From positions 198,619 through 262,618 of the forward strand of contig CAVROQ010000033.1 of the NCBI GenBank assembly GCA_963722805.1: 64,000 nucleotides of DNA, written 5' to 3'. Source of the stretch: an uncultured Gammaproteobacteria bacterium (GTDB lineage Bacteria > Pseudomonadota > Gammaproteobacteria > Pseudomonadales > JAHEGP01). Below are positions 7,000 to 38,714 of this stretch, in pieces. Position 1 is the stretch's first letter. Each line of letters opens with the position of its first letter. The position numbers and the translations under genes were made by a program. Under the pieces are notes generated by a model. It did no database searches, was not told where the DNA came from, and saw only the letters and a program-made list of their open reading frames with translations.

Positions 7000-7013
7000 T
7001 GCGCGTCCTCCCG

Positions 7014-7973: not shown

Positions 7974-8021
7974 TACGGCTTTCGTTGCGCTTTGCGGCGG
8001 CTATTGGCGCGACAAGTGGAT

Positions 8022-9581: not shown

Positions 9582-9615
9582 GATAGCGATTCCTTTTATC
9601 CCCTGGTCTGCGCGT

Positions 9616-13644: not shown

Positions 13645-13740
13645 CCCCGATCTGTGGCCGATAGTCGACCATTGTTACTGGTCTCGCTGCTGGTGTGCAC
13701 CGGCTTCTGACGTCGCTCATCGATGGCGACGGCAGAGCCT

Positions 13741-14934: not shown

Positions 14935-14937
14935 CCG

Positions 14938-15381: not shown

Positions 15382-15395
15382 GAAAATGGCTCCTT

Positions 15396-18285: not shown

Positions 18286-18356
18286 TCCGGATACTGCAGG
18301 CGGTTACGCGTTTGCTGGTGCAGTATTGGGGCTGTGCGGTCCACGGGGACTTGAGC

Positions 18357-19910: not shown

Positions 19911-20738
19911 GGCCACTCCAAACCGTGACTCGCCGTGAACCCATCCATGGGGGCTCGGGCGCCGGGTCCTACCGGCGCACGGTCCCGGTCCGGAGCGGCC
20001 AATCGCTGGCGTGTATTTGAGTGTATTCCGGTATTTCATGCGGTTTGTTGTCGGACACTATGGGATTTGCGTAGTGCTGAATTGGCGCTGGGCCTCTCCA
20101 AACCGGGACTCGCCGTGAACCCATCCCTGGGGGCTCGGGCGCCGGGTCCCACCGGCGCACGGTCCCGGTCCGGAGCGGCCAATCGCTGGCGTGTATTTGA
20201 GTGTATTCCGGTATTTCATGCGGTTTGTTGTCGGACACTATGGGATTTGCGTAGTGCTGAATTGGCGCTGGGCCACTCCAAACCGTGACTCGCCGTGAAC
20301 CCATCCCTGGGGGCTCGGGCGCCGGGTCCCACCGGCGCACGGTCCCGGTCCGGAGCGGCCAATCGCTGGCGTGTATTTGAGTGTATTCCGGTATTTCATG
20401 CGGTTTGTTGTCGGACACTATGGGATTTGCGTAGTGCTGAATTGGCGCTGGGCCACTCCAAACCGTGACTCGCCGTGAACCCATCCCTGGGGGCTCGGGC
20501 GCCGGGTCCCACCGGCGCACGGTCCCGGTCCGGAGCGGCCAGTCGCTGGCGTGTATTTGAGTGTATTCCGGTATTTCATGCGGTTTGTTGTCGGACACTA
20601 TGGGATTTGCGTAGTGCTGAATTGGCGCTGGGCCACTCCAAACCGTGACTCGCCGTGAACCCATCCCTGGGGGCTCGGGCGCCGGGTCCCACCGGCGCAC
20701 GGTCCCGGTCCGGAGTGGCCAAGCGCTGCATGTATTTG
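19911..20738. repeat. Tandem array of a 180-bp unit, 4.6 copies, over 98 percent identical
   Basis: Units start at 19911, 20091, 20271, 20451 and 20631; the last is partial and decays after about 20738. Only about 5 substitutions across the full copies. Sits between two convergent genes. Confidence 0.95.
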
Positions 20739-20780
20739 TGCTTTCTGGCGCCTAGTTGCGGATGATCACCGCGGTGGAGG

Positions 20781-21548
20781 TTATTTTGGCTTGAGGTTGA
20801 TAAGACCTTTGATCAGGTCCTTGGCGGCTTCAGCAGGCGCGCCTTCCAGGTGTTTGTCAATAAATGCGTCTGCGCCTTGTTGCGAGGCGACTTTGGATAC
20901 CGCGTGGCTTAGTGCTGTAGTCACTTCTTTGCCGATTTCAGCTGGCGTCCCCCCTGATACACCGCCGAGGTCCGTCAGTTGCAATGCCGGCAGTTTTGCC
21001 TCATAGCGCTCTGCACCCAGGGCGGTCAGGTCGGCGGCAACGATCCCCTCTTGAAAGGTAAACTGGTCGATACGCAGGCGCTTGGCAGGAGTGCTGTTGG
21101 CAGGGGTGTCATCGGTGGGTTCAGTCCGGCCGCCCTTGGCTGAGCTTTTTGCATGTTTGCCAATAACGTCCATATTGGTTTTACCCTCGGTATTGGCCTC
21201 AAGGTTTACTTTAGGTCCAGTTACCAGCACTTGCCTGATAATAATCGGTTCGCCCGAGATTGAAGCCAATTCGATGGCCACCGTAAACTGCTCCAGCTCA
21301 AATGCCGTGCCGTCAGAGAACCCTGGAGGATTGGCGACCTTCAAGCCGCGGATGGTGCCTTCGCCGCTACGTGGTGAAATGCTGACGCTGGCTACCTCGA
21401 CCCGGGTGCCGGTGATCGCCGAGCCGTAGCTTTCAATGGCCTTTTTTACCAGCGGGTCGAGGTTGGATGAGAGGTAGTAGGCAGCTGCAACGACCAGGAG
21501 TATAACCAGGGCAATCGAGCCCAACACAATATTGCGAGTCTTCATCAA
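20781..21548 (-). CDS. Hypothetical membrane-anchored protein
   Basis: 255 aa. A single N-terminal TM helix (IVLGSIALVILLVVAAAYYL) followed by a soluble domain. No motif I can name. Confidence 0.5.
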   Translation of the reverse strand: MMKTRNIVLGSIALVILLVVAAAYYLSSNLDPLVKKAIESYGSAITGTRVEVASVSISPRSGEGTIRGLKVANPPGFSDGTAFELEQFTVAIELASISGEPIIIRQVLVTGPKVNLEANTEGKTNMDVIGKHAKSSAKGGRTEPTDDTPANSTPAKRLRIDQFTFQEGIVAADLTALGAERYEAKLPALQLTDLGGVSGGTPAEIGKEVTTALSHAVSKVASQQGADAFIDKHLEGAPAEAAKDLIKGLINLKPK

Positions 21549-21576
21549 AATTCCTTTAAAGGTTTGTATTCAGGCC

Positions 21577-22758
21577 TTAGTCGGTGTTGACGATGTTATC
21601 GATAAGCCCCCAATCGAGGGCGGTCCTGGCGTCTATCGCCTGCCCTGAAAGCGCCAGCCAGGCACAACGGTGTCTGCCGATACGTCGCAGGACGCTCACC
21701 GTACCTCCAGCGCCGGGTATCAGGCCGAAGGACACTTCAGGCAGTTTAAAAAAGCTGTCCGCCTGGGCTTGTATATGGTGACAGAAAGCCGGAAGTTCAA
21801 TGCCGGCGCCGATACAGGCGCCATGTACATGGCATTCGATGCGCTCGGCATTATCGTTTATCAGACGCCCGGCACTGCGCATCGAACGCACTGCATGGGC
21901 GCTGGCGGCGTCGGGCAGGGTGCCGAATTCGTCGAGGTCGCCACCGGCAGAAAAGTGTTTGCCATTGCCGCAGATAGTGGCAATGGTGATGCTGGTATCG
22001 GTTGCCAGCAGGTGCAGGGCCTCAACCAGGCCGTCGCGCATGGCAACGGAAAAGGCGTTGGCGCGGTCGGGCCGATTCAGCTCTATTGTCAGCCGCTTGT
22101 CCACGCGATGGTAGATTACTGCCGGCTGTGTTTGGTGTTCAGTGCCCGGCGGTTTTTTTTGTTTGATAAAGCGTCGGAACTCAGCCCCTCCTTGCAGTGT
22201 TGAATAGGCCAGCGATTCCGCCAGCAAGCCATCGCTGATAGATGCACGCTCATTGTGACGTAAGAGCTGCACCAGGGTCATGGCGGCGATGGGATTATTG
22301 CGAATGTTGCTACAAAGTGCCTCGGCATCCTCTGTGGTATTTACCGTGGTGTCGCACAGTGGCCCGGCGGTGTCTGGTATGGACCCCACGGCTATAACAG
22401 GACAACACAGCTGCGGCAGATATGCCTGTAACTGCCGCGCCTGGGATACAGTCACCGCCTGCAAATCCAGTAGCAGGAATGGCTGCTCCCCGAAGGGTGA
22501 AAAGTTCTCGCTGGCCGCTGGACTTGCCAGCTGTAACAAAATTTCGGCGGCGCTGTGTAAGTGATTGGGCATGGTCGGTGCGGATCTGTCCCGGGGGCTT
22601 TGTTTTGGATTCAGGTTGACGGTAACACAAAAGTGGGCATGCTCTAAGGCGCCTCGGGTGATTTTGCTATCACCTATCGGGTCGCTCGCTGAAGCTGCGG
22701 GGGCCAGAGCAGAGTAGGCTCTCACTGCCAGCTCTGCTGATGGGACACTAGCAGCCAT
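21577..22758 (-). CDS. Enoyl-CoA hydratase/isomerase family protein with a ~190-aa N-terminal extension (start uncertain)
   Basis: The C-terminal ~200 aa is crotonase-like (LTIELNRPDRANAF...GNGKHFSAGGDLDEFG...HGACIGAGIELPAFC). An alternative start at ATG 22572 is possible. Confidence 0.65.
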   Translation of the reverse strand: MAASVPSAELAVRAYSALAPAASASDPIGDSKITRGALEHAHFCVTVNLNPKQSPRDRSAPTMPNHLHSAAEILLQLASPAASENFSPFGEQPFLLLDLQAVTVSQARQLQAYLPQLCCPVIAVGSIPDTAGPLCDTTVNTTEDAEALCSNIRNNPIAAMTLVQLLRHNERASISDGLLAESLAYSTLQGGAEFRRFIKQKKPPGTEHQTQPAVIYHRVDKRLTIELNRPDRANAFSVAMRDGLVEALHLLATDTSITIATICGNGKHFSAGGDLDEFGTLPDAASAHAVRSMRSAGRLINDNAERIECHVHGACIGAGIELPAFCHHIQAQADSFFKLPEVSFGLIPGAGGTVSVLRRIGRHRCAWLALSGQAIDARTALDWGLIDNIVNTD

Positions 22759-22818
22759 CTTGGCGTGAAAATCGGATATTATTCAAACTCCTATTCACCT
22801 AACCAACCCTGACTTTCT

Positions 22819-23772
22819 ATGGATACTATCGATCAGCAAGTTCTTAGGCAGTTGCAGCATTGGCTGCAAGCGGGGCAGGCCTGCTGGCTGTGCACCATCG
22901 TTGGCACCTTGGGGTCGTCGCCGCGTCCGGTGGGCTCACTACTTGCCTGTAACGATGCCGGCCAATGGGTTGGATCCCTCTCGGGTGGTTGTGTTGAGGA
23001 TGATTTACTGGAGCGCCTCGCCCGCGGTGAGCTGGCCCGGGCTAAACCGGAGTTGGTCGAGTACGGTGTGACCGCCGAGGAGAACGAGCGCCTGGGCTTG
23101 CCCTGTGGCGGGCGGCTCGAGGTGCTGGTGGAAAGCATAGAGGCAGGACAGTTGCCGGCTTTTGACAGCATCATTGCATGTCTCGATCAACGGGTTTGCT
23201 GCCTGCGTGAGCTCGACCTGCAAAGTGGAGAAATACGGGTAAGCCCGACGGATACCTTCCAGCCCCTCGAATACGATTCAGAGTTTTTGCGCCAGGGTTT
23301 TGGCCCGCGCTTTCTGTTATTGCTGGTTGGTGCCGGCCAGTTGGCTCGCAGTTTGGCGCAGATGGCGATGATGCTCGATTATCGGGTGGTGGTTTGCGAT
23401 CCCCGACCCGCCATGATTGCCGATTGGAGCCTGCCCGGGGTGGAGTTGATCCAGGGGATGCCCGACGACGTGGTACGTGAGCGGGTGTTGGACAAGTTTT
23501 CGATAGTGATTACCCTGACCCACGATCCACGCATCGATGACATGGCCTTGATGGAAGCCCTCACTTCACCCGCCTGTTATATTGGCGCCCTGGGGTCGGT
23601 GCGCACCAGCGCCAAGCGACGCGAGCGCCTGCCGCAGTTGGGCTTGAGCCAGCAGCAGATTGATCGGCTGCATGCACCGGTAGGATTGAGTATCGGTAGC
23701 AAGACACCACCTGAAATTGCCATCGCTATTCTTGCAGAGTTGACCCGCATGCGGCGCCAGGGATTGGCGTGA
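22819..23772 (+). CDS. xdhC: XdhC/CoxI-family molybdoenzyme maturation factor
   Basis: 317 aa. N-terminal XdhC_CoxI-like block (TIVGTLGSSPRPVGSLL) and a Rossmann-like LLLVGAGQLARSLAQMA...VVVCDPRP. Confidence 0.8.
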   Translation: MDTIDQQVLRQLQHWLQAGQACWLCTIVGTLGSSPRPVGSLLACNDAGQWVGSLSGGCVEDDLLERLARGELARAKPELVEYGVTAEENERLGLPCGGRLEVLVESIEAGQLPAFDSIIACLDQRVCCLRELDLQSGEIRVSPTDTFQPLEYDSEFLRQGFGPRFLLLLVGAGQLARSLAQMAMMLDYRVVVCDPRPAMIADWSLPGVELIQGMPDDVVRERVLDKFSIVITLTHDPRIDDMALMEALTSPACYIGALGSVRTSAKRRERLPQLGLSQQQIDRLHAPVGLSIGSKTPPEIAIAILAELTRMRRQGLA

Positions 23773-24452: not shown

Positions 24453-25454
24453 ATGTCTAGCCCAACCCAATCCACCAATAAAATCACTTTCTATATTGCC
24501 CGTATGGCACAGCGGGGTTTTAGCAGTGAGCAAGTGCTGGAGGGTTCGGGGCTGGCGCTGGATGAGGTGCAGGGGGAGCAATACCGCCCCTCGCCAGATC
24601 AATACCGGGTCATTATTGGCAATATGTTGCGCCTCTCTGGCGACCGCTTTCTGGGTATCGGCATCGGTTCAGAATTTAAAATCAGCGAGCTGGGTGTGCT
24701 GGGCTATGCGGCGCTGAGCAGCGCCAATCTCGCTCAGTCGCGTGAGCTGTTTATTAAGTACGACGCGCTGGTTGAGCACATACTGACCCCGAATACTGAG
24801 GTCGGCAACGGCAAATGGGTGACCGAATTGGTGGAGACCTTCCCGCTGGGGGAGATCCTGCCATTTGCAGTGGAGGAGTTTGTCAGTCGCACCGTGGGCC
24901 TGGCGTCGAGCCTGACCAATCGCCCTTTTCCGGTGCTGGAGTTGCGCCTTAGCTATCCGCCACCCCCGGAGCTGGACGCCTATCGCCGTGCATTTGACTG
25001 CCCCATGCTGTTTAACCAGCCGCGCAACCTGGTGTACTGGGACATCAACTGTCTTGCGGACCCGATAAGCCTCGCCAACCAAGATGTGTTCAAGCTGTGT
25101 GAACAGCAGTGCCAGATGTTGGTGAATAAGCTGGCCGACGGCAGCTTGCTGTCGAGCAATATTCGGGACGCGCTGGTGAAAACACCTGGCGAATTTCCTT
25201 CACTGGAGGCCATGGCGCGGCGGCTGAAAATGGGCTCTCGCACACTGCGTCGCAGACTGGTGAAAGAAAACCTGACCTATCAGCAGATTCTTGACGACAC
25301 CCGCAAAGACCTTGCCATCCAGTATCTGGAGTATACCTCGCTGACACCCAAGGAGATCGGCTACCTGCTGGGCTATAACAGCGTCAGCAATTTTCGCCGT
25401 GCGTTCAAGGGCTGGACCGGTAAGAAACTGACCGACTATCGCCAGAATGGCTAG
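24453..25454 (+). CDS. AraC-family transcriptional regulator
   Basis: 333 aa. C-terminal double-HTH region (SLEAMARRLKMGSRTLRRRL...YLLGYNSVSNFRRAFKGWTG). N-terminal ligand/dimerisation domain. The only regulator gene in the window. Confidence 0.85.
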   Translation: MSSPTQSTNKITFYIARMAQRGFSSEQVLEGSGLALDEVQGEQYRPSPDQYRVIIGNMLRLSGDRFLGIGIGSEFKISELGVLGYAALSSANLAQSRELFIKYDALVEHILTPNTEVGNGKWVTELVETFPLGEILPFAVEEFVSRTVGLASSLTNRPFPVLELRLSYPPPPELDAYRRAFDCPMLFNQPRNLVYWDINCLADPISLANQDVFKLCEQQCQMLVNKLADGSLLSSNIRDALVKTPGEFPSLEAMARRLKMGSRTLRRRLVKENLTYQQILDDTRKDLAIQYLEYTSLTPKEIGYLLGYNSVSNFRRAFKGWTGKKLTDYRQNG

Positions 25455-25645: not shown

Positions 25646-27040
25646 TCAGTGATGGAAGCCGCCACCCTCCTGATCTGTAAGCGGCGTCTCGGCAGGATGT
25701 TTTTCCAAATGCTCCATCGCCGCTTTTATGTCGCTCACCAGTAGCGAAACCAGATCACGGCTCACGCCGTGCCGGGCGAGAATGCGCTGGATGGATAGAT
25801 CCTGTCGGTTAGCCGGCAGGGCATAGGCCGGCACCTGCCAGCCGCGGGTCCGCAGGCGGTCCGCCAGGTCGTAGAGGGTGAAACCGGGGTCGGTACCTTC
25901 CTTGATCTTCCAGCACAGCGCTGGAATACCGCGATCCATCTCGCCGCTGTAGATCATTTCGAAGGGGCCCAGTTTTTCGATTTCTTTGGCAACGTACTGT
26001 GCGGCTTGATAGCAGGCGGTGTGGATTTTGCGGTAGCCCTCGAACCCCAGTCGCAGGAAGTTGTAGTACTGGCATACAATCTGCCCACCCGGACGGGAAA
26101 AATTCAGCGCAATGTCGCGCATGTTGCCACCCAGATAGTTGACCCAGAATACCAGCTGTTCGGGCAGATCCTGCTCTTCGCGCCAAATGACCCAGCCCAC
26201 CCCGAGTGGTGCAAGGCCGAATTTGTGTCCCGAAGAGTTGATCGATTTAACCCGTGGCAGGCGGAAGTCCCACACCAGATCGGGCGCGCAGAACGGAGCC
26301 AGGAAGCCGCCGCTAGCGCCGTCGACATGGATCGGTATATCAATACCCGTTTCCTTCTGGAGTTGATCCAGCGCATCCGATACTGCCTGCACCGGTTCAT
26401 ATTCGCCGGTAAAGGTTACGCCCAGCGTGGGCACCACTCCGATTGTGTTTTGGTCGCAGCGTTTGAGCACTTCTTCCGGCGTCATCAGCAGTCTGCCGTT
26501 TTCCATCGGGATCTCGCGATGCTCAATATCCCAATAGCGGGTAAACTTATGCCAGCAGATCTGTACCGGGCCAGTGATCAGGTTCGGCTTGTCTGTCGGG
26601 AGTCCTGCGGCCTTCTGGCGAGCTTCCCAGCGCCGTTTCATCGCCATCCCTCCGAGCATCGCGGCTTCGCTTGACCCGGTAGTCGAGGTGCCGACAGCGT
26701 GTTTGGCCGGCGAGTGCCAGAGGTCCGCCAGCATGTTGACACAGCGCGCTTCGATCTCGGCGGTCTGCGGATACTCATCCTTGTCGACCATATTCTTGTC
26801 GATGCATTCGTCCATCAGCTTGTGCACTTCTGGCTCGGTCCAGGTTTGGCAGAAAGTTGCCAGATTCTGGCGCGAGTTGCCGTCCAGCATGAGCTCATCA
26901 TGGACGCAGGCATAGGCATGCCTGGGATCCTGTTCGTGGGAAGGGAAATGCTTCTTTGGCACGCTCGTTGAGAGATCGCCGGAGGCATAGAGCTCCTCAT
27001 CTGGGCCGCCGTTAAGTGAGCTTTTATCACGTTTGGTCAT
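25646..27040 (-). CDS. gad: Glutamate decarboxylase (PLP-dependent, GadA/GadB type)
   Basis: ORF trimmed to ATG 27040 (AAGGAG 7 nt upstream). PLP-lysine block [22 protein letters not shown] matches the GAD signature. About 464 aa. Confidence 0.9.
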
Positions 27041-27196
27041 TATGCTGCTCCTTATTAAGTCCAATGTTTGGCAAATCGTGGTTGGAGCAGGTTTATGATC
27101 TGCTCCGCTATAATGGCTGTCGGGCTTTCACCTGGCTTTTGCGACGGCCGCTGCCGTATTACGTGAGTCCGTGGCATTGGCCGTGGTGATTTATAT

Positions 27197-27416
27197 TCAC
27201 TCTCCTGAAAACTCCAAGGATTGTTCGATATCCCAGCCGACGCCCGGCGCCTTGTAAGGGGCAATGAGATCGACCAGAGTTTGCGCCTGTGTGAGAATCA
27301 GCTGTTCCTGCCGGGAAGTCAGGTTTCTCTGTTCCGCTATCTTTTCCGGATAGATATGTCTCTTGATGATTCCAAGGATGTTCGTGATGACAGAGCGCAG
27401 CAATCTCGATTTTCAT
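27197..27416 (-). CDS. Small hypothetical protein (~73 aa) with an apparent frameshift near codons 5-8
   Basis: ATG 27416 has a good SD (AAGGA, 9-nt spacer), but its frame reads like junk. The protein-like frame (LRSVITNILGIIKRHIYPEKIAEQRNLTSRQEQLILTQAQTLVDLIAPYKAPGVGWDIEQSLEFSGE) starts only at TTG 27403, in another frame. Confidence 0.3.
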
Positions 27417-27457
27417 AATGTAGTGTCCTTCGACAGCACTGCTGAGTGCCGCTTTGT

Positions 27458-28180
27458 CTATTCGTTGGGTTGGTTTTGTAGACGGGTCGCAATTTCGAGT
27501 CCGACCAGTCGGGCGATAATGATGGCTAGATAAAGTTGTGAAACCATAGCTTCAAAAGTGGCGAGAGCACGGGCGGCTGGCGCTACAGGAAGAATGTCGC
27601 CATAACCCAGGGTGGTCATGGTGACCAGGCTGAAGTAGACCAAATCGAACTCTAATGATTGCTGCCCCAAATTGCTGTGGGCAGTTTTTGCCAGGTCCGG
27701 GATATAAAAAGCTCCGGGGACGAACCATTCCAGCAAGATGAATGTTGATCCGAACGCCAGGCCAAGCATAACAAAAATGCAGCTTGCTCCCAATACCGTA
27801 TCTTTCGAAACATGTTTGCTTTGCATGATACTGACGAAGATCATGACGATCATTTGACTGAAAAACAGAACCCGCAGTGCTGCGGCATAGGGGTAGGCTG
27901 CTGCTACCGCAAACGACCGACTGAGCAGCTCTGCCAGGATAAAAGCAAAGCCCAGCAGTAGGGTTAAGAAGTAAGCAGTCCCCCGCCCGTGTGAAGCACG
28001 CAGTGCAGATGCAACCACGCCCATTGAGGTCAGGGTGAAAAGCCAGCTTAGATATTTGTGGTAGCCCAGGAAGGGGTAGATCAACAGTAGCGCGAACAGA
28101 ACGATCAGCAGTAGACCGTAGCGACTTTCCCCGGTCTTGATGGCTGATTCCAAGGCTCCTCGCCGCTTCATGGGGTTCAT
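27458..28180 (-). CDS. Potassium channel family protein (pore-loop TTLGYGD)
   Basis: 240 aa, multiple TM helices. The canonical K+ selectivity filter LVTMTTLGYGDILP sits between the last two helices. Confidence 0.7.
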   Translation of the reverse strand: MNPMKRRGALESAIKTGESRYGLLLIVLFALLLIYPFLGYHKYLSWLFTLTSMGVVASALRASHGRGTAYFLTLLLGFAFILAELLSRSFAVAAAYPYAAALRVLFFSQMIVMIFVSIMQSKHVSKDTVLGASCIFVMLGLAFGSTFILLEWFVPGAFYIPDLAKTAHSNLGQQSLEFDLVYFSLVTMTTLGYGDILPVAPAARALATFEAMVSQLYLAIIIARLVGLEIATRLQNQPNE

Positions 28181-28620: not shown

Positions 28621-31059
28621 ATGGTGCTGAGTAAGGGCGCGCTTGCCGGCATCAGGGTGCTGGAGGTCGTCGATGAAACTGCGTCCTGGTGTGGCAAGTT
28701 ATTTGCTGACATGGGTGCTGAGGTCATCCGGATCGAGCCGCCCGGCGGTGTCGCCGAGCGCAAGCGTGCGCCTTTCCTCGAAGGCATTGAGGGCGCTGAT
28801 CGCAGTCTGGCGTTTCTCAATAACAATACCAATAAGAAAAGCCTGAGCCTTGAGCTGGCGTCCGCCGCTGGAGCACAAACCTTTCGCCAGCTCGCCCGTA
28901 CTAGCGAGCTGGTGATCGAGAGTCTGCCTGTGGGTCAGCTCGCTGCGTGGCAGCTGGATTACCATCGTCTGAGAATCGACAACCCGGCGCTGGTCATGAC
29001 CTCAATCACCGGCTTTGGCCAAACCGGGCCCCACTGCCACTTTCGCAGTGCCGATATCGTGGCGGCGGCCATGGGTGGGGCCATGGCAGTTACCGGCGCG
29101 GCGCAAGATCCTCCGGTAGTGCTGGCCGGCTCCCAGTCGTATATCGCCAGCTCGACCCTGGCCGCGGTGAGCAGCATGATCGCCTTGCACCACAGTGCCG
29201 TCAGCGGCTGTGGCCAGCATGTGGATATCTCGATGCAAGAGGCCATGCTGATGGTAGGCAGCATCTGCGGGGTGGGCAAATGGCTGGAGGACGGGATGGT
29301 CCCGGCACGGTTTGGCACTGGCTTGTTTGCCTCGGTGCCCTCCGGCGCCTATGCCTGCAGTGATGGCAGCATTTACCTGATGATCAATCGACCGCGGCAC
29401 TGGCAGGCGCTGGCGCGTTGGGTAAACGAGATGACCGGCAACCGCGAAATTCTCGATCCGATGTTCGAAGGTCCATCTTCAAAGCGCCAGCCCTACCGGG
29501 AAATGCTCGACCTGTTTATCGGCGAGTTGAGCGCTGCTTATACGGTGGCTGACTTTTATCGTGAGGGTCAGCGCCGCCACCTTGCCGTTGCCCCGGTCAA
29601 TACCGGGCACAGTATTGTTGGCGATGGACACTTGCAACAACGCCAGTTCTTTGTCGAGCTGCAACATGGTGGGCATAGCCTGCGCTATCCCGGGCCGCCT
29701 TATCGCATGTCGGCGAGCCCCTGGCGCATCGCCGCTGGTGCACCGACTATCGACGAGCACAAGCCCGCCCTGGAGCAGTTGTTGCAGCGCGTGCGTGTGC
29801 CCCGCAGCAAAGCTTCGCAAGGGCGGCGACCAGCGCCGCGGGAGCGGGCTCTTGCCGGGCTGCGGGTGGTGGAGTTTACGACCGGTATGGCGGGGCCCTG
29901 GATTGGCCGGATTATGGCTTGCTGTGGCGCCGAGGTGATTAAGGTTGAGTCCCGCGACTACCCGGATGTTACCCGCCTCTATGTGCCGCCTCGCAACCCG
30001 GAACTGGGGGTGCAGTCGCAGTTGTCGCCGTGGCTGACCGACTGGAATGCCGGCAAGCGATTCGTAGGTTTGGATTTGAACCAGCCCGCAGGGCTTGAAC
30101 TGGCAAAGCAGTTGGTCGCCGCCAGCGATGTGGTGATCGACAACAATGCCAATGGCGTGCTGGACAAACTCGGACTGGGATTTGCCGAGCTACAACGCGA
30201 AAACCCCGCCCTTATCCTGCTCAGTAGTACTGGCTATGGCAGGCACGGTCCAGACTCCAATTATATCTCCTGGGGGCCGAATATTGAGGCCTTGTCGGGG
30301 CTCTCGCATTGGTCTGGCTTTGACCATCGACACTGCACCATGACCCAGTTTGCCTATCCCGACCCACTCAGCGCGCTGTATGGATTATTCGCGATCCTGT
30401 GCGCACTGCAACAGCGGAATCAAACCGGGTCTGGCCAGTGCATTGAGCTGTCGCAGCTCGAGGTGATGCTGGCCAGCCTGGGAGAACCGCTGATGAACGT
30501 TATGGCGCATGGCCGCGAGCCTGAAAAGTTGGGCAATAGCTCACTAAATTATGCGCCCCACGGTTGCTATCCCTGCGCCGGTATTGACCGTTGGTGCGTG
30601 ATTGTTGCAGCAGACCAGCAGCAATGGCGCGCCGTGTGCGAGGTATTGCAGCGCAGCGAGTGGCTGACCGATAGCCGCTTTGTCGAGCTGGCCTCAAGGT
30701 TGCGCTATCGCGATACCCTGGACGAGCTCATCGCCAGTGCCACGCATAGCTGGTGCGACTACGATTTGATGCAGGCCTTGCAGCGGCGCGGGGTGGCAGC
30801 CGGCGTGGTCCAGAATGCGGCAGATCAATACCAGCGCGATCCCCAGCTGGCTGCGCGCCACTACTTCGAAACGCTTGCCCATGCGCGCAAAGGTGAGGTG
30901 GTGGCTCCGGGTATTGCCCTGGGTCTGACGGTCACTGAGGTAAAATCGGGAGAAGCCGGGCGGGGGCCCGGGGCCGACAACAAAGCGGTTTTTTGTGGGC
31001 TTCTAGGAATAAGTCCTGCGCGCTATCGGCAATTGCGGGCAGCCGGCGTTATCCACTAA
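28621..31059 (+). CDS. Fusion of two family III (CaiB/BaiF) CoA-transferase domains, DddD-like architecture
   Basis: 812 aa. Domain 1 starts LAGIRVLEVVDETASWCGKLFADMGAEVIRIEPPGG. Domain 2 starts LAGLRVVEFTTGMAGPWIGRIMACCGAEVIKVESRD. Each is a full-length CaiB-like unit. Confidence 0.85.
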   Translation: MVLSKGALAGIRVLEVVDETASWCGKLFADMGAEVIRIEPPGGVAERKRAPFLEGIEGADRSLAFLNNNTNKKSLSLELASAAGAQTFRQLARTSELVIESLPVGQLAAWQLDYHRLRIDNPALVMTSITGFGQTGPHCHFRSADIVAAAMGGAMAVTGAAQDPPVVLAGSQSYIASSTLAAVSSMIALHHSAVSGCGQHVDISMQEAMLMVGSICGVGKWLEDGMVPARFGTGLFASVPSGAYACSDGSIYLMINRPRHWQALARWVNEMTGNREILDPMFEGPSSKRQPYREMLDLFIGELSAAYTVADFYREGQRRHLAVAPVNTGHSIVGDGHLQQRQFFVELQHGGHSLRYPGPPYRMSASPWRIAAGAPTIDEHKPALEQLLQRVRVPRSKASQGRRPAPRERALAGLRVVEFTTGMAGPWIGRIMACCGAEVIKVESRDYPDVTRLYVPPRNPELGVQSQLSPWLTDWNAGKRFVGLDLNQPAGLELAKQLVAASDVVIDNNANGVLDKLGLGFAELQRENPALILLSSTGYGRHGPDSNYISWGPNIEALSGLSHWSGFDHRHCTMTQFAYPDPLSALYGLFAILCALQQRNQTGSGQCIELSQLEVMLASLGEPLMNVMAHGREPEKLGNSSLNYAPHGCYPCAGIDRWCVIVAADQQQWRAVCEVLQRSEWLTDSRFVELASRLRYRDTLDELIASATHSWCDYDLMQALQRRGVAAGVVQNAADQYQRDPQLAARHYFETLAHARKGEVVAPGIALGLTVTEVKSGEAGRGPGADNKAVFCGLLGISPARYRQLRAAGVIH

Positions 31060-31232
31060 GCGTTTTGGGGCTATGACCCGGGTTCCCACCTGTGCTGGCC
31101 GATGAAGCCTCTGCTGGCCCCAAATGATATCGCAACGGCCGCTACAGCATTTTGCCTATCCCGGCCAACATGCGGCTGATGGCTTATCGTGGCAGGCCAC
31201 CGTGTTATTCCGCTGAGTCGAGGAAGTGCTGC

Positions 31233-32471
31233 ATGACTGCAAATCGCCCACCGCTGGAAGGCCTTCGTATAATTGAAAGCTCGCTGCTGGGCGCGGCGGC
31301 GATTTCCACCACGTTTGCCGATCTCGGTGCCGAGGTGATCAAGGTGGAGTCACCGGCGGGTGATTATATTCGTGAAATGACCTGGCCGATCATCGAGGGC
31401 GTTTCGCTGATGCACTATCACCTGAATCGCGGCAAGAAGAGTATCACCCTCGATCTCAAAACCGCCAGGGGCGTTGAGATTTATCGCGAGTTGGCGAAAG
31501 ATGCAGACGTGGTGATCGAAACCATGCGCCCGGGAACGCTCGCTAAACTCGGGCTGGGTTTTGCCGACCTGAAAAAAATAAATCCCAAAATTGTGTTCTG
31601 TACGGTGTCGGGTTATGGCTCCAGCGGGCCCTACCAGGCGATGCCGTCCCACGGCATCGCCTACGATACCTGGTCGGGTGTGGTTACCCCGGCATACGAT
31701 GACGAAGGCTTTTGCTATATTCCCGAGCATGTGTCCATTGGTATCAACGCTGCGCCACTGGTGGGCGGCCTGGCCATTCTGGCCGGTGTGTTGCGAGCCC
31801 GGGAAACCGGCGAGGGCTGTGAAATGGAATTGGGCCAGAGCGATGCCGCGGCTTATTTCGACTGGTATCGCAGCGAAAGCCATATGGCTTATGCGCGACC
31901 CGAAAACGAAGTCACCGGCAACAAGGCCGATGGCTACAAACGGCGTCCAGTCGCCACTGCGGGCATGCGGCATGGTGTGCGCTACCAGCTGTATGAAGCC
32001 AGCGATGGTCATGTGCTGTTTATGGCGTCGGAGCAGGCCTTCTGGAAAAACTTCTGTGCCGGGGTCGAGCGCATGGATCTGTTCGACAAATGGCCTGGTT
32101 CAAAGTATGCCGACCATGCCCCGGGTAATCGGCAGCTGCAGGCCGAATTGCGGGCCATATTTAAAACCCGGACCTCGGCCGGCTGGATAGCATTCAGCAA
32201 CGAGTTCAATACCCCTATAGCGCCGGTCAACACGCCGGCCACCGTGGTCGATGACCCGCAGTTCAAAGCCCGTATCAAGGTATTGCCGCACCAGCGCCAC
32301 GGTGCGGATATGCTGGCATTTCCGGTGCACTTTATGGGTGAGGAATTGCCCGAGCCCGAGAGAGCGCCGACCGCCGGCGAGCATACCGAAGAAGTGCTGC
32401 GAAATGTACTGGGTTATGAAGCTACCACTATCAATAAGCTGCGAGAGGAGGGGGTTTTCGGCGCAGGCTAG
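31233..32471 (+). CDS. Family III CoA-transferase
   Basis: ORF trimmed to ATG 31233 (GAGGAAG upstream). LEGLRIIESSLLGAAAISTTFADLGAEVIKVESPAGD and a later TGEGCE block. Confidence 0.8.
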   Translation: MTANRPPLEGLRIIESSLLGAAAISTTFADLGAEVIKVESPAGDYIREMTWPIIEGVSLMHYHLNRGKKSITLDLKTARGVEIYRELAKDADVVIETMRPGTLAKLGLGFADLKKINPKIVFCTVSGYGSSGPYQAMPSHGIAYDTWSGVVTPAYDDEGFCYIPEHVSIGINAAPLVGGLAILAGVLRARETGEGCEMELGQSDAAAYFDWYRSESHMAYARPENEVTGNKADGYKRRPVATAGMRHGVRYQLYEASDGHVLFMASEQAFWKNFCAGVERMDLFDKWPGSKYADHAPGNRQLQAELRAIFKTRTSAGWIAFSNEFNTPIAPVNTPATVVDDPQFKARIKVLPHQRHGADMLAFPVHFMGEELPEPERAPTAGEHTEEVLRNVLGYEATTINKLREEGVFGAG

Positions 32472-32709
32472 GACACTGTCTGCAGCCATTTTCGTGCATC
32501 CATTTCTCGGCTTTCTTCCCCTTGTGGCCGCGTCAACCAGGGCCCACCCGACCCAAAGCTATTGGCTAAAAAGCTGTCCTCTTCTGATATTCTTTAGGCC
32601 GCTATCGCTGCGTCGCCTGGATCAAAATTTGTCGCTATCTCGCTAGAATCTCAGTCTCCCGGTGGTCTTAACGAGCTGTGGAAAGACCTGCAGTCGGAGG
32701 TGTCACGCC

Positions 32710-33891
32710 ATGAATTTTGAATTTGCCGAGAAGGAACGGGAATTTATCCGCGAAGTGGACGAGTTTCTGGAGCAGAATCGTCACATTGATGTGATGGATG
32801 TGACTCGAGAGAACATGGCGCAAGTGTGTGACACGCCCGAGCGCCGGGCGTTTATGAAAAAGCTGGCCGATCGTGGCTGGCTGGGTATTACCTGGCCCGC
32901 GGAGCACGGTGGTCAGGAAGGCGATGGCATCTACGAATACCTGCTCAATGAAAAGCTGTCCTCGGTGGGAGCGCCGGGTATCGGCAAAGGCGTAGGCATT
33001 GTCGGCAAAACCCTTATTCGGGTCGGATCTGAAAAGCTCAAAAAGGAATTTCTGCCAAAAATCATTAACGCGCAAGTCGAGTTCGCTGTCGGCTACTCCG
33101 AGCCGAGTGCCGGTTCCGACTCGGCAGCCATGCGACTCAAGGCCGAGCGCGTCGAGGGCGGTTGGGTACTTAACGGGCAAAAGATATTTACCACTTCGGC
33201 GCACTTTGCCGACTGGTACTGGGTGGGCGCGCGCACCGATCCCGAGGCACCCAAGCACCATGGCATCAGCTTGTTCCTGGTGCCCATGGATCACCCGGGC
33301 CTGACCATACACCCCATGCCCACCATGGGCGGTGAGCGCACTAACGGGGTATTTTTTGATGATGTGTTCGTACCTGAAGATTATCTCGTCGGTGAGCTCA
33401 ACAAGGGCTTTCAATACATTGCCGAGGCGCTGGATATTGAGCGCTTTACCATGTTTACCTTTGCGCCCATTCGAGGTCGGGTTGAGCTGCTGGCGGACTA
33501 TGTGAAAAACACGGTGCGCGATGGCGTGCCCCTGAAAGACGACCCGGTGATTCGCCAGCGAGTGGCACAGTTGGTTACCGAGTGCGAGGTTGCTCGCCTG
33601 CTCGGGGTTAAGTTTGTCGACGCTGCCATCAATAGCGATAAAACGCCTACGGCTGAGGCATCCTTCTACAAGTTGTTTGCTACCGAGCTGTCCTTGCGGG
33701 TTGCCAATGCGACGATGGATATTATTGGTCCGGGTGCCCAGCTGGCTCTGGGTACTGAGGGGGCGCCACTGAATGGTCGCGCCGAGAGTTGTTACACCTA
33801 TACCGTCATCGATACCATCGGTGGCGGTTCGTCCGAGGTTCAGCGCAATATTATCGCGCGGCGCCATCTCGGCTTACCGAAAAACTTCTGA
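32710..33891 (+). CDS. Acyl-CoA dehydrogenase
   Basis: ORF trimmed to ATG 32710. GYSEPSAGSDSAAMRLKAERVEGGWVLNGQKIFTTSA and C-terminal GGGSSEVQRNIIARRHLGLP are typical ACAD blocks. Confidence 0.85.
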   Translation: MNFEFAEKEREFIREVDEFLEQNRHIDVMDVTRENMAQVCDTPERRAFMKKLADRGWLGITWPAEHGGQEGDGIYEYLLNEKLSSVGAPGIGKGVGIVGKTLIRVGSEKLKKEFLPKIINAQVEFAVGYSEPSAGSDSAAMRLKAERVEGGWVLNGQKIFTTSAHFADWYWVGARTDPEAPKHHGISLFLVPMDHPGLTIHPMPTMGGERTNGVFFDDVFVPEDYLVGELNKGFQYIAEALDIERFTMFTFAPIRGRVELLADYVKNTVRDGVPLKDDPVIRQRVAQLVTECEVARLLGVKFVDAAINSDKTPTAEASFYKLFATELSLRVANATMDIIGPGAQLALGTEGAPLNGRAESCYTYTVIDTIGGGSSEVQRNIIARRHLGLPKNF

Positions 33892-33899
33892 TTGTCGCC

Positions 33900-35060
33900 A
33901 TGGACTTCCTTCAGGGTTTAACAGTGCTTGATCTGGCCAGCGTGGGCCCGGCGGCACGAGCCTCGAGGATTCTGGCCGACTACGGGATGGAGGTGATAAA
34001 GCTGGCGCCGGTGACGGCCCATGGCGCCAAGCAGATAGACCCGGTATTTCACGCCTATGGTGCCGGGCGCGGCATGCGCAGGATTCGTCTCGATCTTAAA
34101 TCGTCAGAGGGCATAGCGGCGCTGGCTAAACTGGTTGCCGGAGTCGATGTGGTGATAGAGAGTTTTCGACCCGGCGTGGCCGAGCGCCTCGGCATCGCTT
34201 ATCAAGACTTGAAGCCGCACAATCGCCAACTTGTTTATTGTTCGACCAGTGGCTATGGCCAACAAGGTCCTTATTCACAGTGGGCGGGACACGACATCAA
34301 CTACCTGGCAGCGACCGGTTTTCTCGACTGTAGCGGCCGCGATGGCGAGGGCGTACCCGCCATGCCGGGAGTCACGGTCGCCGACAGTGCGGGCGGCGGT
34401 ATGCATGCCGCCATGGCCATTATTGCGGCGCTGCTAAACCGCTGTCGGCACAACGAGGGCGCTTATCTCGATGTCGCCGCCACCGACGGCGTGCTCAGCA
34501 TGATGTCATTATACCTTGACCAATACACCGCCACCGGCTTCGAAACCCAGTCTGGCAATGCCCTGCTGACCGGCCAGTATGCCTGGTATGGCGTGTACCC
34601 GACCGCCGACGGTAAAGCCGTGTCAGTGGGAGCCATTGAGCCGCATTTCTTTCGCAGGCTGTGTCGTCTTTTGGATCTTGGCCAATTTAGCGACAGCCAA
34701 TATGACCACGCCCGACAAGCGGACATGAAGGCAGCGTTTACCCGGGTATTCCTGACTCGCAGTCGCGACCAGTGGACTGAACGCCTGGCAGCTGAAGATA
34801 CCTGTATGGCGCCGGTGCTGAGTATTGCTGAAGTCGCGGGTGATCCCCACTACCGTGCACGCTCCAGCTTTATGACCGCACATCACCCTGAGCATGGCGA
34901 GTTCGCGCAGCTTGCACCGGTGCTGGCAGGATGTAAGCGCCAGCAGCCAGTATTCGAAATGCCCGCCACGGCCGAGACCGATAGCGACGCGGTATTTATG
35001 GCTGCCGGATTCAGCGAAGCCGAAATAGAGCATTTACGCTTGGCCGGCGTACTGGAATAG
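33900..35060 (+). CDS. Family III CoA-transferase fold protein, alpha-methylacyl-CoA racemase-like
   Basis: ORF trimmed to ATG 33900. LTVLDLASVGPAARASRILADYGMEVIKL. The WAGHDINYLAATGFL block matches the GHDINYLA signature I associate with AMACR/Mcr. An Asp-containing VTVADSAGGG block follows. Confidence 0.7.
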   Translation: MDFLQGLTVLDLASVGPAARASRILADYGMEVIKLAPVTAHGAKQIDPVFHAYGAGRGMRRIRLDLKSSEGIAALAKLVAGVDVVIESFRPGVAERLGIAYQDLKPHNRQLVYCSTSGYGQQGPYSQWAGHDINYLAATGFLDCSGRDGEGVPAMPGVTVADSAGGGMHAAMAIIAALLNRCRHNEGAYLDVAATDGVLSMMSLYLDQYTATGFETQSGNALLTGQYAWYGVYPTADGKAVSVGAIEPHFFRRLCRLLDLGQFSDSQYDHARQADMKAAFTRVFLTRSRDQWTERLAAEDTCMAPVLSIAEVAGDPHYRARSSFMTAHHPEHGEFAQLAPVLAGCKRQQPVFEMPATAETDSDAVFMAAGFSEAEIEHLRLAGVLE

Positions 35061-35065: not shown

Positions 35066-35602
35066 ATGGAGCAGCCGATGACAAACGATATTTTGGCTAT
35101 TCCCCCGGAGGTGGAGGCGCTGATCGGTGTGGTGCAATATCGTGAGCAAAGCACGTTTCCCATCGAGATGGCCTACGTCTATAACACCTGCGCTGCGGTG
35201 CAAAATGGCAATCCCTTGTTTTGGGACAGCACGGTAGCCGAGCAACTAACGGGAGGCCAGATCGCTCCGCCGACCATGATGTCAGTGTGGTTCAGGCCTC
35301 ACTATTGGGAGCCGGGTGCGGTGGGCGAGCAAAAGGCCCTGCAGGCGCACTTCGATTTAAAGGTCTTGCTGCAATTGCCCGAGGCGATCATATCTGGCAA
35401 CGAAATGGTTTTTGGTGAGCCGGTTCGACCGGGCGACATTTTGACTACCCAGCAAATCCTGCGCTCTATCAGTGAGGTGAAAACAACCCGGGTGGGACGG
35501 GGGCGTTTTTGGGTTATCGATGTTGAGTGTTACAACCAGGATGGCGGTTTTGTCGGTCGTGACATCTATTCATGCCTCGGTTACCGGAGGGAAGCCGCTT
35601 GA
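35066..35602 (+). CDS. Hotdog-fold protein, non-catalytic partner of a MaoC-type (R)-hydratase pair
   Basis: 178 aa. Adjacent to and overlapping the MaoC-like gene. The arrangement resembles heteromeric ChsH1/ChsH2-type hydratases. Confidence 0.55.
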   Translation: MEQPMTNDILAIPPEVEALIGVVQYREQSTFPIEMAYVYNTCAAVQNGNPLFWDSTVAEQLTGGQIAPPTMMSVWFRPHYWEPGAVGEQKALQAHFDLKVLLQLPEAIISGNEMVFGEPVRPGDILTTQQILRSISEVKTTRVGRGRFWVIDVECYNQDGGFVGRDIYSCLGYRREAA

Positions 35603-36087
35603 GCACTATAGCGCAGCCGACACTGACTGCCGAAACGGTCAGTGTCGGCCAGCAATTGCCACCCCTGGAGCACGATGTGACGGCGACCACGGTGGTGCTG
35701 GGTGCGCTCGCCAGTCGCGACTGGCGGCCGATGCATCACGACAAGGAATTTGCCATACAGCGAAACGGCGTTGCCGATATTTTCATCAACACCCCCAACA
35801 ATGCAGCATGGTTTGAACGTTATATTACCGACTGGACCGGACCGACGGGTCGGCTGGGAAGAATGAAGTTCAAGATGAGCTCGTCGGTGTTTCCCGGCGA
35901 TCGCATGCTGTTTGCCGGCACGGTCAAGAGCATCACCAGCGATGCCGGCGGATGCTGTTGGCTGGAACTGGATATTGCAGTCACCGTCGCCGGCGAAGTC
36001 TCCACCCGCTGTCTTGCCCGGGTAGCGATACCCGCGCATGCCGACGACAACCCCTGGCAGCGACGCGGAGAAAATTGGTTGCCTTAG
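35599..36087 (+). CDS. MaoC-like (R)-specific enoyl-CoA hydratase, hotdog fold
   Basis: ORF 35572..36087. The likely start is TTG 35599, overlapping the upstream TGA (TTGA). SRDWRPMHHDKEFA hydratase motif. Confidence 0.65.
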   Translation: MSTIAQPTLTAETVSVGQQLPPLEHDVTATTVVLGALASRDWRPMHHDKEFAIQRNGVADIFINTPNNAAWFERYITDWTGPTGRLGRMKFKMSSSVFPGDRMLFAGTVKSITSDAGGCCWLELDIAVTVAGEVSTRCLARVAIPAHADDNPWQRRGENWLP

Positions 36088-36187: not shown

Positions 36188-36215
36188 CGTGAAGCAAACA
36201 TATAGAGAGGCTGGC

Positions 36216-37382
36216 ATGGATCTACAGTTTACTGAAGAACAGAATATGCTGCGCGATATGGTCAGGAGCCTGTGTGAAAAATCCAGCAGTATCAGTGTTG
36301 TGCGCGAATTGGAAAACGACCCTGTAGGCGTGCCGGCCGAACTGTGGGGTCAGCTCGCCGATACCGGCATTCTGGGTATGCTGCTGCCGGAGGAATATGG
36401 CGGCCTGGGACTCACTATGGTCGATGCTGCGGTGGTCTACGAAGAGCTGGGTCGAGCACTCGCACCGGGACCGCAGTTTGTGAGTGCGGTCATGGTGCTG
36501 TTGGCGATTAAAGCCGCCGGCACCGCTGAGCAAAAGAGGACACATCTGCCCGCGCTTGGCAGGGGCGATCTTATTGCTACCCCGGCCTGGCTGGAGCCCG
36601 ACAATGGCTATGGCCCCGAAGGTGTGCAGCTGCGCGCCAGCGTTAATGCCGACGGCTATGTGCTGAGTGGCGTCAAACGCCATGTGTTTTATGCAGCTGC
36701 AGCACACAAGCTTTTAGTGCTGGTGCGTACCGGTGACGCCGTCGATGCCATCGACTTGTTACTGCTTGATACCGAGGCGTCGGGAGTAGAGCTGCAACAA
36801 CAGTTGTCGATGGCGTCAGATACCCAGTACCTGGTCACTTTCGACAACGTTCAGATACCCGCTGCCAATCGTATAGGCGCACCGCACAGTGGCTGGCACA
36901 CTTGGCACGCCTGCATGCTGGAGGGGATTATCCTGTTGGCGGCGGCGGCCGTTGGCGGCGCCGAGCGAGCCCTCGACATGACCGTCAAGTACTCCATGGA
37001 ACGCGAGCAGTTCGACAAGCCGATAGGCGCTTTTCAGTCGCTGGCCCACTATATGGCGGATGCGGCAACGGCCATCGCTGGTGCCAAAACCCTGGTACTG
37101 GAGGCGGCCTGGGTGCACGCCCAGGGTGGGTCGGTGGCGCGATTGGCGCCGATGGCAAAGCTGTTCGCCTGCGATACTTTTCGCAATACCACGGCGAAAT
37201 GCGAACAAATCCACGGTGGTTACGGTTTTTGCCTGGAGTACGATATCCAGCTGTTCTACCGTCGTGCCAAGCAACAGCAGCTGAACTGGTGGGATTCCCG
37301 CTATCTCGAACAACGGGTCGCGGCTGATGTCTTTGACGGCGCCGATACGCAGCGAACCGTGGCAGATCCGTTTACCGCTTGA
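36216..37382 (+). CDS. Acyl-CoA dehydrogenase
   Basis: ORF trimmed to ATG 36216. N-terminal FTEEQNMLRDMVRSLCEK and C-terminal QIHGGYGFCLEYDIQLFYRRAK are typical ACAD blocks. Confidence 0.85.
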   Translation: MDLQFTEEQNMLRDMVRSLCEKSSSISVVRELENDPVGVPAELWGQLADTGILGMLLPEEYGGLGLTMVDAAVVYEELGRALAPGPQFVSAVMVLLAIKAAGTAEQKRTHLPALGRGDLIATPAWLEPDNGYGPEGVQLRASVNADGYVLSGVKRHVFYAAAAHKLLVLVRTGDAVDAIDLLLLDTEASGVELQQQLSMASDTQYLVTFDNVQIPAANRIGAPHSGWHTWHACMLEGIILLAAAAVGGAERALDMTVKYSMEREQFDKPIGAFQSLAHYMADAATAIAGAKTLVLEAAWVHAQGGSVARLAPMAKLFACDTFRNTTAKCEQIHGGYGFCLEYDIQLFYRRAKQQQLNWWDSRYLEQRVAADVFDGADTQRTVADPFTA

Positions 37383-37480
37383 ATGGACGGTGATAGTGCC
37401 GCGCCTCAAGGGATGATATTAAGCGATGTCGATGCAGCATTGTCGGCACAATGATGCAAAGCCTTATGCAAGGAGATCCT

Positions 37481-38692
37481 ATGGCCAATGGTGCCCTGGC
37501 AGGAATCAAGGTGGTGGACTTTGGCCAGATGGTGTCGGCGCCCTATTGCGCCAAACTGTTCAGTGATTTTGGTGCCGATGTGATCAAGGTTGAAGCTCCG
37601 GGTGGTGATGCCGCCCGCCGGATGGGGCCGTTTCCCGGCGACATACCCGCAGCGGAAAAAAGTGGTCTCTTTTTCATCAACAATACCAACAAGCGCGGTA
37701 TTACCTGCGATGTTGCAACGGCTGCCGGGCGCGAGCTGTTCCTGCGCTTGCTGGAGTGGGCCGACGTACTGATTGAGAACAACTTGCCCCAGCAGATGCA
37801 AGCCTGGAAACTCGATTATCCAAGCCTGCAGCGCGTCAACCAGAGGCTGGTAGTTATCTCGATTACCCCGTTTGGCCAGACTGGCCCCTACAGTGGCTGG
37901 AACGCCTACGACCTCAATGCCTATCACCTTTCAGGTGCCAGTAACCGCTACTGTGGTCGTCCGGGAGAAATGCCGCTGGAGCACGGTACCTTCGCCGCCG
38001 ACTATTTCGGTGCCGTAACCGCGGCGAGCTGGGGCCTTGGCGCGTACTATGGCCGCGAAGCTGTGGGCAGCGGGCAGTGTGTAGATGTGTCCTGTGCAGA
38101 AGCTATCGCCGCTACCTTTGTTGGCGGCCAGACTATCGGTGGTTTTGCCCAGGACGGCGTTTTCGACAAGCGCACCGGGGTTGGGCTGCCCCAGGGCGCG
38201 CCCGCGACCATTGTGCCTTGTCGCGACGGTCATGTATGGATGCTGGCGTTGGAGCCGGGGCAGTGGAACGGTCTGCGGGAGGTCATGGGAAACCCTGAAT
38301 GGGCCGAGCTGGAATTGTTCCAGGATATGCGGGCGCGGGCCCAGAACGCGGATTTAATCTACCCGTTTATCGAAGAGTGGGCGCTGCAACACGACAAGAT
38401 GGAGATCATGGAAAAATGCCAGGCGGCCGGCTGCCCGATAACCGCGGTGTTTACCATTGCTGAAGCTGCCGAGCATCCCCATTTAGCCGCGCGGGATTAC
38501 TTTGTCGATATCGAGCATCCGCAACTCGGTCGGGTGAAGAATCTTGGTGTCCCGTTCAAACTGCCGGCATCGCCCGGTGGGCCGTGCCGACCGGCCCCAC
38601 TGCTGGGGCAGCACAATGTCGAGGTCTATGGTGCTATTCACGGTTTGTCTCCGGAGCAGCTGGACGAGTATCGGGCTCAAGGCGCGATCTAA
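37481..38692 (+). CDS. Family III CoA-transferase
   Basis: ORF trimmed to ATG 37481 (AAGGAG upstream). LAGIKVVDFGQMVSAPYCAKLFSDFGADVIKVEAPGGD. Conserved Asp block GTFAADYFG...VGSGQC. Confidence 0.8.
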   Translation: MANGALAGIKVVDFGQMVSAPYCAKLFSDFGADVIKVEAPGGDAARRMGPFPGDIPAAEKSGLFFINNTNKRGITCDVATAAGRELFLRLLEWADVLIENNLPQQMQAWKLDYPSLQRVNQRLVVISITPFGQTGPYSGWNAYDLNAYHLSGASNRYCGRPGEMPLEHGTFAADYFGAVTAASWGLGAYYGREAVGSGQCVDVSCAEAIAATFVGGQTIGGFAQDGVFDKRTGVGLPQGAPATIVPCRDGHVWMLALEPGQWNGLREVMGNPEWAELELFQDMRARAQNADLIYPFIEEWALQHDKMEIMEKCQAAGCPITAVFTIAEAAEHPHLAARDYFVDIEHPQLGRVKNLGVPFKLPASPGGPCRPAPLLGQHNVEVYGAIHGLSPEQLDEYRAQGAI

Positions 38693-38714
38693 AAAAATAT
38701 CGAATTCGAGGTCC

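Follow-up and report, generated by a model that had tools for sequence, protein, structure and literature searches.

Family III CoA-transferases such as Frc, YfdW, CaiB, SUGCT, and the enzyme of PDB entry 4ed9 are homodimers of identical, interlocked subunits, with two active sites, an Asp-dependent mechanism, and an (S/T)GxGQ sequence block. For Frc, acyl-aspartyl anhydride and aspartyl-CoA thioester intermediates are established. Two further arrangements bear on this study: benzylsuccinate CoA-transferase (BbsEF), which consists of two different family III units, and DddD, the dimethylsulfoniopropionate (DMSP) CoA-transferase/lyase that releases dimethyl sulfide, in which two CaiB units stand in tandem on one chain. 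We analyzed a 64,000-nt stretch of contig CAVROQ010000033.1 from an uncultured gammaproteobacterium (hereafter, the window), and in it a gene encoding a single chain of two family III units (hereafter, the fused protein; Table 1). A preliminary description of the sequence had called the protein DddD-like. We consider it highly probable that it is instead a fusion of two different subunits of the BbsE/BbsF heteromeric type, working as a pseudo-heterodimer with a single active site.

The open reading frame (ORF) starts with ATG and encodes 812 amino acids. Pfam CoA_transf_3 (PF02515) matched the product twice, with a total of 562 bits (cut-off 23.3, E = 7e-169), bearing out the earlier view of two complete CaiB-like units. 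The units are ∼27% identical to each other, and in NCBIfam each half separately matched single-unit family III transferases, always below threshold. More than 1400 close homologs were found, the closest named ones from Halieaceae. A frameshift or assembly artifact joining two genes was ruled out because independent assemblies yield hundreds of homologs with the same continuous ORF. Promoter and terminator scans and an Rfam search around the gene returned nothing informative.

In a sequence search of the PDB, the two halves found the two chains of benzylsuccinate CoA-transferase separately. Unit 1 scored 166 bits against chain A versus 92 against chain B, and unit 2 scored 189 bits against chain B versus 88 against chain A. 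We take chain A to be BbsE and chain B to be BbsF, judging from chain lengths and from the gene order in split pairs (below). An AlphaFold2 model built from 113 homologs had a mean predicted local distance difference test score (pLDDT) of 93.6 and a predicted template modeling score (pTM) of 0.95; the mutual arrangement of the halves was confident, and only the linker (residues ∼386–408) was not. Foldseek placed BbsEF (9fol and 9fn0) at the top of all PDB structures, with template modeling (TM) scores, normalized to the target, of 0.96 for chains B/D (root mean square deviation 1.7 Å) and 0.86 for chains A/C. Each half thus has its best match in both sequence and fold in BbsEF. Our literature searches turned up nothing useful on the structure of BbsEF or on fused and heteromeric family III enzymes.

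We then compared the catalytic position of each unit. In alignments with family III enzymes of known structure, the Asp that serves as nucleophile in 4ed9 ('vafaDif') and in 10uh ('vamtDiv') falls on Asp581 in the second half and on Tyr174 in the first. Both residues lie 21 positions ahead of the (S/T)GxGQ block, so that the family III hallmark of an Asp on the helix before this block is found in unit 2 and is missing from unit 1, as the preliminary description had stated for both domains. Asp581 is invariant (120/120 close homologs), whereas position 174 is among the most variable of an otherwise conserved helix (Y31 H31 F16 D10 N8 L4 in the same 120 sequences). BbsEF shows the same division. 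Its chain A carries Tyr171 in alignment with Tyr174, and Asp178 of the reconstructed chain-B sequence aligns with Asp581; the title of entry 9fol reads 'D178-CoA adduct'. The pattern of Tyr in one unit and nucleophilic Asp in the other is therefore already present in BbsEF.

The conservation of unit 1 raises the question of whether both halves might be catalytic, with unit 1 either using another nucleophile (Asp163 or a Glu) or acting as the second transferase of a bifunctional enzyme. Taken as a whole, the two units are equally conserved (mean column entropy over the homologs 1.28 for unit 1 vs. 1.24 for unit 2); unit 1 retains the Rossmann and CoA-binding motifs, and its sole Asp near Tyr174, Asp163, is kept in 116 of 120 close homologs; moreover, a minority of fused proteins carry Asp in both halves. 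However, the spread of residues at position 174 would be unexpected for a catalytic residue. The 'DPPV' motif that contains Asp163 also occurs in standard enzymes that use the canonical Asp, where it marks a non-catalytic position, and in BbsEF the deposited adduct sits on Asp178 of chain B while chain A has Tyr. Taking the two sides together, we regard a doubly catalytic protein as very unlikely.

The strongly selected parts of the two units differ. Mean column entropy reaches its lowest values, and conservation its highest, in the unit 1 small domain (1.00) and the unit 2 large domain (1.02); among the folded parts, conservation is poorest in the unit 1 C-terminal part (1.71) and the unit 2 small domain (1.57). 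From this asymmetry we infer one composite active site. In the proposed mechanism, the two halves would fold onto each other as the interlocked pseudo-dimer typical of family III, with unit 2 providing the Rossmann-type large domain and the nucleophile Asp581. Acyl transfer from a donor CoA thioester, probably succinyl-CoA, to this residue would come first, an aspartyl-CoA thioester would form on it next, and the CoA would then go to the incoming acid; we propose this chemistry by analogy, because of the Frc intermediates and the BbsEF adduct. Unit 1 has lost the nucleophile but is still strongly selected, most likely because the one active pocket, that of unit 2, is closed off and shaped by the unit 1 small domain. 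The symmetry-related pocket, formed by the large domain of unit 1 and the small domain of unit 2, would have no nucleophile and would be catalytically dead. The comparison with the homodimeric enzymes is then one of shared fold, sequence block, Asp-dependent mechanism, and predicted interlocking, but with two diverged halves and one nucleophile in place of identical subunits and two active sites.

Unfused relatives support the derivation from two subunits. In the split pairs of Variovorax sp. SRS16, where the two genes overlap, and of Paraburkholderia caribensis, the first gene lacks the Asp (Phe and Thr, respectively) and the second has it, and the gene order (A then B) equals the order of the halves in the fused protein. 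The window itself holds a split pair within the same operon (Table 1), but there the Asp is kept in both genes, including the A-type member, at whose position BbsEF chain A has Tyr. On a plasmid of Variovorax sp. SRS16, an 847-aa fused CoA-transferase (4611–7154) lies two genes upstream of a split A/B pair, with an enoyl-CoA hydratase gene between them, so that fused and split forms coexist in one cluster there too; MaoC genes and genes for a Zn-ribbon OB-fold protein and a thiolase belong to the same operon.

We extended the comparison by searching 1.84 billion cluster representatives exhaustively and considering the best 150 matches. Among these, ∼140 different 50%-identity clusters were colinear two-unit proteins of ∼800 aa, 30%–55% identical to the fused protein. 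Alignment of 142 such representatives with four references (146 in total) showed Asp in the second half of 141 and a mixture at the first-half position (Y48, S17, E13, D11, H8, Q8, F7, and others). Four representatives, which make up part of the exceptions, have the halves in reversed order with the Asp-bearing half first, and eight others have Asp in both halves. The fused proteins of Pseudohalioglobus lutimaris, Seongchinamella sediminis, Variovorax sp. SRS16, and a Bosea sp. are colinear with ours at 30%–66% identity and share its Asp pattern, and those of Halieaceae lie in the same operon. Annotation of these relatives is generic ('CoA transferase' or 'CaiB/BaiF family'), and none has been characterized.

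A neighbor-joining (NJ) tree of the separated halves placed all first halves in one group with BbsEF chain A and the split A-type proteins, and all second halves in another with chain B and the split B-type proteins. Sub-groupings were congruent between the two sides, pairwise scores agreed with the division, and the DddD halves fell outside both groups on long branches. Together with the distribution of split and fused forms, the tree suggests that an old A/B pair has been fused and split repeatedly and that the gene in the window is one such fusion. To judge from the alignments, the lineage as a rule keeps a single Asp per pair, in split pairs, in the ∼140 diverse fused representatives, and in DddD.

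The resemblance to DddD nevertheless deserved a direct comparison. DddD and the fused protein are both ∼810–840 aa long, have two tandem CaiB units per chain, and retain the Asp only in the C-terminal unit; the source of the window is also probably a marine gammaproteobacterium, given that the closest named homologs are from Halieaceae. We obtained an authentic DddD reference by searching the genome collection with a published quantitative PCR primer for Endozoicomonas acroporae dddD (PMC7174347). The search returned two loci: that of E. acroporae, which is cut short, and a complete gene in an Amphritea metagenome-assembled genome, which encodes an 837-aa tandem CaiB protein and has an Fe-alcohol dehydrogenase gene next downstream. 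Used as a database query, the Amphritea protein retrieved a tight family spanning several orders, all members being 74%–98% identical to the query. These included E. acroporae (76% identity), Marinomonas sp. MED121, Halomonas, and Pseudovibrio, the last carrying the NCBI name 'dimethylsulfoniopropionate cleavage enzyme DddD'.

The fused protein is 24%–25% identical (96–119 bits) to the five DddD proteins from E. acroporae, Pseudovibrio, Halomonas, Marinomonas, and Amphritea, compared with at least 74% within the DddD clade, and it falls outside that clade. Alignment is mostly limited to ∼200 residues at the start of each half and leaves out the small domains. Neither half of DddD comes as close to the two units as do the BbsEF chains, split pairs, many other fused proteins, and ordinary single-unit CaiB proteins. 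All of 120 proteins of the DddD family carry Asp602 in the C-terminal half, and the stretch that corresponds to it in the N-terminal half (PSFSPLPLGSSYATTLAA) is free of Asp. This pattern fits the preliminary description's statement that DddD is catalytic only in its C-terminal domain; mutational work reportedly showed that only the C-terminal Asp is needed.

Gene context points the same way. As the preliminary description had noted, the usual ddd neighbors are absent: no BCCT transporter, Fe-alcohol dehydrogenase, aldehyde dehydrogenase, or LysR gene adjoins the fused gene, and no neighbor resembling dddB (Fe-alcohol dehydrogenase), dddC, dddT (BCCT), or dddR (LysR) was found in the window, nor at the loci syntenic with it in relatives, unlike the Amphritea gene with its dehydrogenase. 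A tblastn search of plasmids for DddD by context returned split pairs and other fused proteins and no ddd cluster. We therefore consider a DMSP-cleaving enzyme, whether of the DddD type or a divergent form of it, extremely unlikely. By its sequence relationships the fused protein is not DddD, and the label 'DddD-like' is misleading; a single Asp is general among heteromeric and fused family III enzymes and not a signature of DddD.

Table 1. Features of the fused CoA-transferase gene and its conserved neighborhood (window coordinates)
Feature	Coordinates	Strand	Basis or remark
Fused family III CoA-transferase gene, 812 aa	28621–31059	+	ORF, Pfam, NCBIfam, homologs
Unit 1 (residues 1–385), A-type, BbsEF chain-A-like, without catalytic Asp	28621–29775	+	Best PDB match 9fn0_A, E = 5e-47; A-type clade
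Linker (residues 386–408, ∼23 residues), unconserved	29776–29844	+	Mean entropy 3.28; pLDDT 63–68
Unit 2 (residues 409–812), B-type, BbsEF chain-B-like, putative catalytic half	29845–31056	+	9fn0_B, E = 1e-54; Foldseek TM 0.96 to 9fol_D
Tyr174 codon, at catalytic-Asp position ('AGSQSYIASS')	29140–29142	+	Aligns with Tyr171 of 9fn0 chain A
Asp581 codon, predicted nucleophile ('FAYPDPLSA')	30361–30363	+	Aligns with Asp178 of BbsEF chain B (CoA adduct in 9fol)
Fe-S/CCG oxidoreductase	11653–13644	−	
SCP-x/BbsB-like thiolase	13741–14934	−	
Zn-ribbon/OB-fold-like ORF	14938–15381	−	OB-fold from synteny and CxxC motif only
Electron-transfer flavoprotein (ETF) alpha	15396–16370	−	
Amidohydrolase_2	16710–17678	+	Conserved neighborhood
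AMP-binding acyl-CoA synthetase	18312–19856	+	Conserved neighborhood
AraC-family regulator	24453–25454	+	In relatives, immediately precedes the orthologous fused gene
Single-unit CaiB paralog without catalytic Asp	31152–32471	+	
Acyl-CoA dehydrogenase, PimC-like	32662–33891	+	Below curated cut-off
Single-unit CaiB paralog with Asp	33789–35060	+	
Two small MaoC/hot-dog hydratase-like ORFs (35066–35602, 35572–36087)	35066–36087	+	Same pair in P. lutimaris locus
Acyl-CoA dehydrogenase, PimD/AcrC/IpdE2-like	36189–37382	+	Below curated cut-offs
Split CaiB pair (A-type 37451–38692, B-type 38544–39956)	37451–39956	+	Unfused counterpart of the fused gene
Enoyl-CoA hydratase	start 41369		

The genes around the fused gene form a conserved cluster. 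In Pseudohalioglobus lutimaris, the same order was found: Fe-S/CCG oxidoreductase, thiolase, OB-fold protein, and ETF, and divergently amidohydrolase_2, AMP-binding protein, AraC regulator, and fused transferase, followed by CaiB, acyl-CoA dehydrogenase, CaiB, the MaoC pair, acyl-CoA dehydrogenase, CaiB, and CaiB. The module from the Fe-S/CCG oxidoreductase to ETF alpha (11653–16370) is conserved and adjoins the fused gene in relatives, and parts of the gene order recur in two other gammaproteobacterial assemblies. In the window, the fused gene stands first in a series of genes for CoA-ester enzymes (Table 1). Beyond the enoyl-CoA hydratase at 41369, the window holds two more CaiB pairs, hydratases, and a thiolase farther downstream.

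Compared with the P. lutimaris locus, the window has extra genes in two places. Between the acyl-CoA synthetase and AraC (19969–23772) lie an ORF with only a sub-threshold rhaM match (19969–20700), a DUF748/AsmA-like protein, a protein with an enoyl-CoA hydratase (ECH) domain, and XdhC; between AraC and the fused gene (25646–28180), a PLP-dependent decarboxylase and an ion-channel protein are encoded on the opposite strand. Inside the operon, a 352-aa ORF (40010–41068) has no Pfam or NCBIfam match; a DUF2889 protein occupies a similar place in the P. lutimaris cluster.

The preliminary description had also held that the other CaiB paralogs of the window keep an Asp 21 residues before the block. 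The spacing holds for Tyr174 and Asp581, but the paralog at 31152–32471 has no such Asp and that at 48480–49670 has His. Each has an Asp-bearing paralog nearby (33789–35060 and 49686–50897, respectively), and these are probably further pairs of pseudo-subunit and catalytic subunit. A 505-aa protein at 55551–57068 has an N-terminal extension of ∼220 residues and a partial CoA_transf_3 match (profile positions 4–206).

What might the cluster do? The bbs operon comprises a CoA-transferase, dehydrogenase, hydratase, thiolase with a Zn-finger subunit, ETF, and ETF:quinone oxidoreductase (PMC10818641), and the conserved cluster of the fused gene parallels it in enzyme types, with acyl-CoA dehydrogenases, hydratases, a thiolase with a Zn-ribbon/OB partner, ETF, and an oxidoreductase. 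The substrate of the fused enzyme is probably a free carboxylic acid, likely a dicarboxylic one. Once activated, it would be broken down by the dehydrogenases, hydratases, and thiolase encoded nearby, and the electrons would go to ETF and the Fe-S/CCG oxidoreductase. Our best guess, held with low confidence, is that succinyl-CoA serves as CoA donor for a substituted dicarboxylic acid or an alicyclic one.

Benzylsuccinate itself is an unlikely substrate, because the BbsEF chains are only 31%–33% identical to the units of the fused protein and the window has no bss genes: among the window ORFs scanned, we found no glycyl-radical enzyme and no BbsG, BbsH, or BbsCD equivalog. The thiolase at 13741–14934 reached 174 bits versus the BbsB cut-off of 750, and no NCBIfam equivalog cut-off was reached by the fused protein, by nine further operon proteins, or by the thiolase. 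The system differs from BbsEF, then, in the fusion of its units through a short linker, in the lack of bss genes among the scanned ORFs, and in its host, which is probably an aerobic marine gammaproteobacterium.

Family III also includes racemases and an intramolecular CoA-transferase (AMACR- and Mct-like enzymes), which appeared among our weaker matches, and with so many CaiB paralogs in the operon not all need be transferases; the fused protein might accordingly racemize, or move CoA within, an acyl-CoA of the pathway. Racemases and Mct matched at E = 1e-11 to 1e-16, however, far below BbsEF, SUGCT, and Frc. Those among the PDB matches are single-sequence entries and not heteromers, and the heteromeric A/B type has so far been tied to intermolecular transfer (BbsEF). 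We judge a racemase or mutase improbable, about as much so as the bifunctional enzyme considered above.

Several observations weigh against a BbsEF-type pseudo-heterodimer with one active site. In the large domain of unit 1, the motifs for CoA binding are still well conserved, so a ligand may yet bind in the Asp-less pocket. The interlocking of the two halves is a prediction, from a model with a high pTM in which each half superposes on whole BbsEF chains (TM 0.86–0.96). Approximately 8% of close homologs carry Asp at position 174. In the NJ tree, built with a crude distance method, the A-type and B-type groups received moderate bootstrap support (43 and 63 of 100), and a homolog from Myxococcota sits in a different neighborhood. 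Identity to BbsEF is low, as given above, and the best NCBIfam score of the fused protein was 374 bits against a cut-off of 750, which identifies neither the CoA donor nor the acceptor.

A bolder idea, which we think unlikely though somewhat less so than a racemase or a bifunctional enzyme, is that the cluster lets aerobic marine Halieaceae and their relatives consume aryl- or alkylsuccinates or similar bulky dicarboxylates, for example from anaerobic hydrocarbon degraders, with the Asp-less pocket of unit 1 kept as a ligand-binding site that regulates the enzyme or holds its substrate.

Near the start of the window, on the reverse strand, we noted an MtrCAB-like porin–cytochrome module (2218–9776). 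It encodes an MtrC/MtrF-like multiheme protein (2218–4638), an MtrB/PioB porin (4684–7071), an MtrA-like multiheme cytochrome (7014–7973), and a multiheme protein with an EB_dh domain (8022–9776), and it suggests extracellular electron transfer in this probable Halieaceae genome.

With the BbsEF subunits and not DddD as nearest relatives, the fused gene encodes an ordinary, though uncharacterized, acid-degradation enzyme from a large and generically annotated family. Tandem CaiB proteins are common (>1400 close homologs of this one), and neither the tandem architecture nor a single Asp warrants a DddD annotation on its own, a caution that guards against over-calling the potential for dimethyl sulfide production. 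Across heteromeric and fused family III CoA-transferases, from BbsEF and the split pairs to the fused proteins and DddD, each pair of units has generally lost one nucleophile, and the large uncharacterized fused family offers a convenient single-chain system for studying pseudo-subunits in the family III fold.

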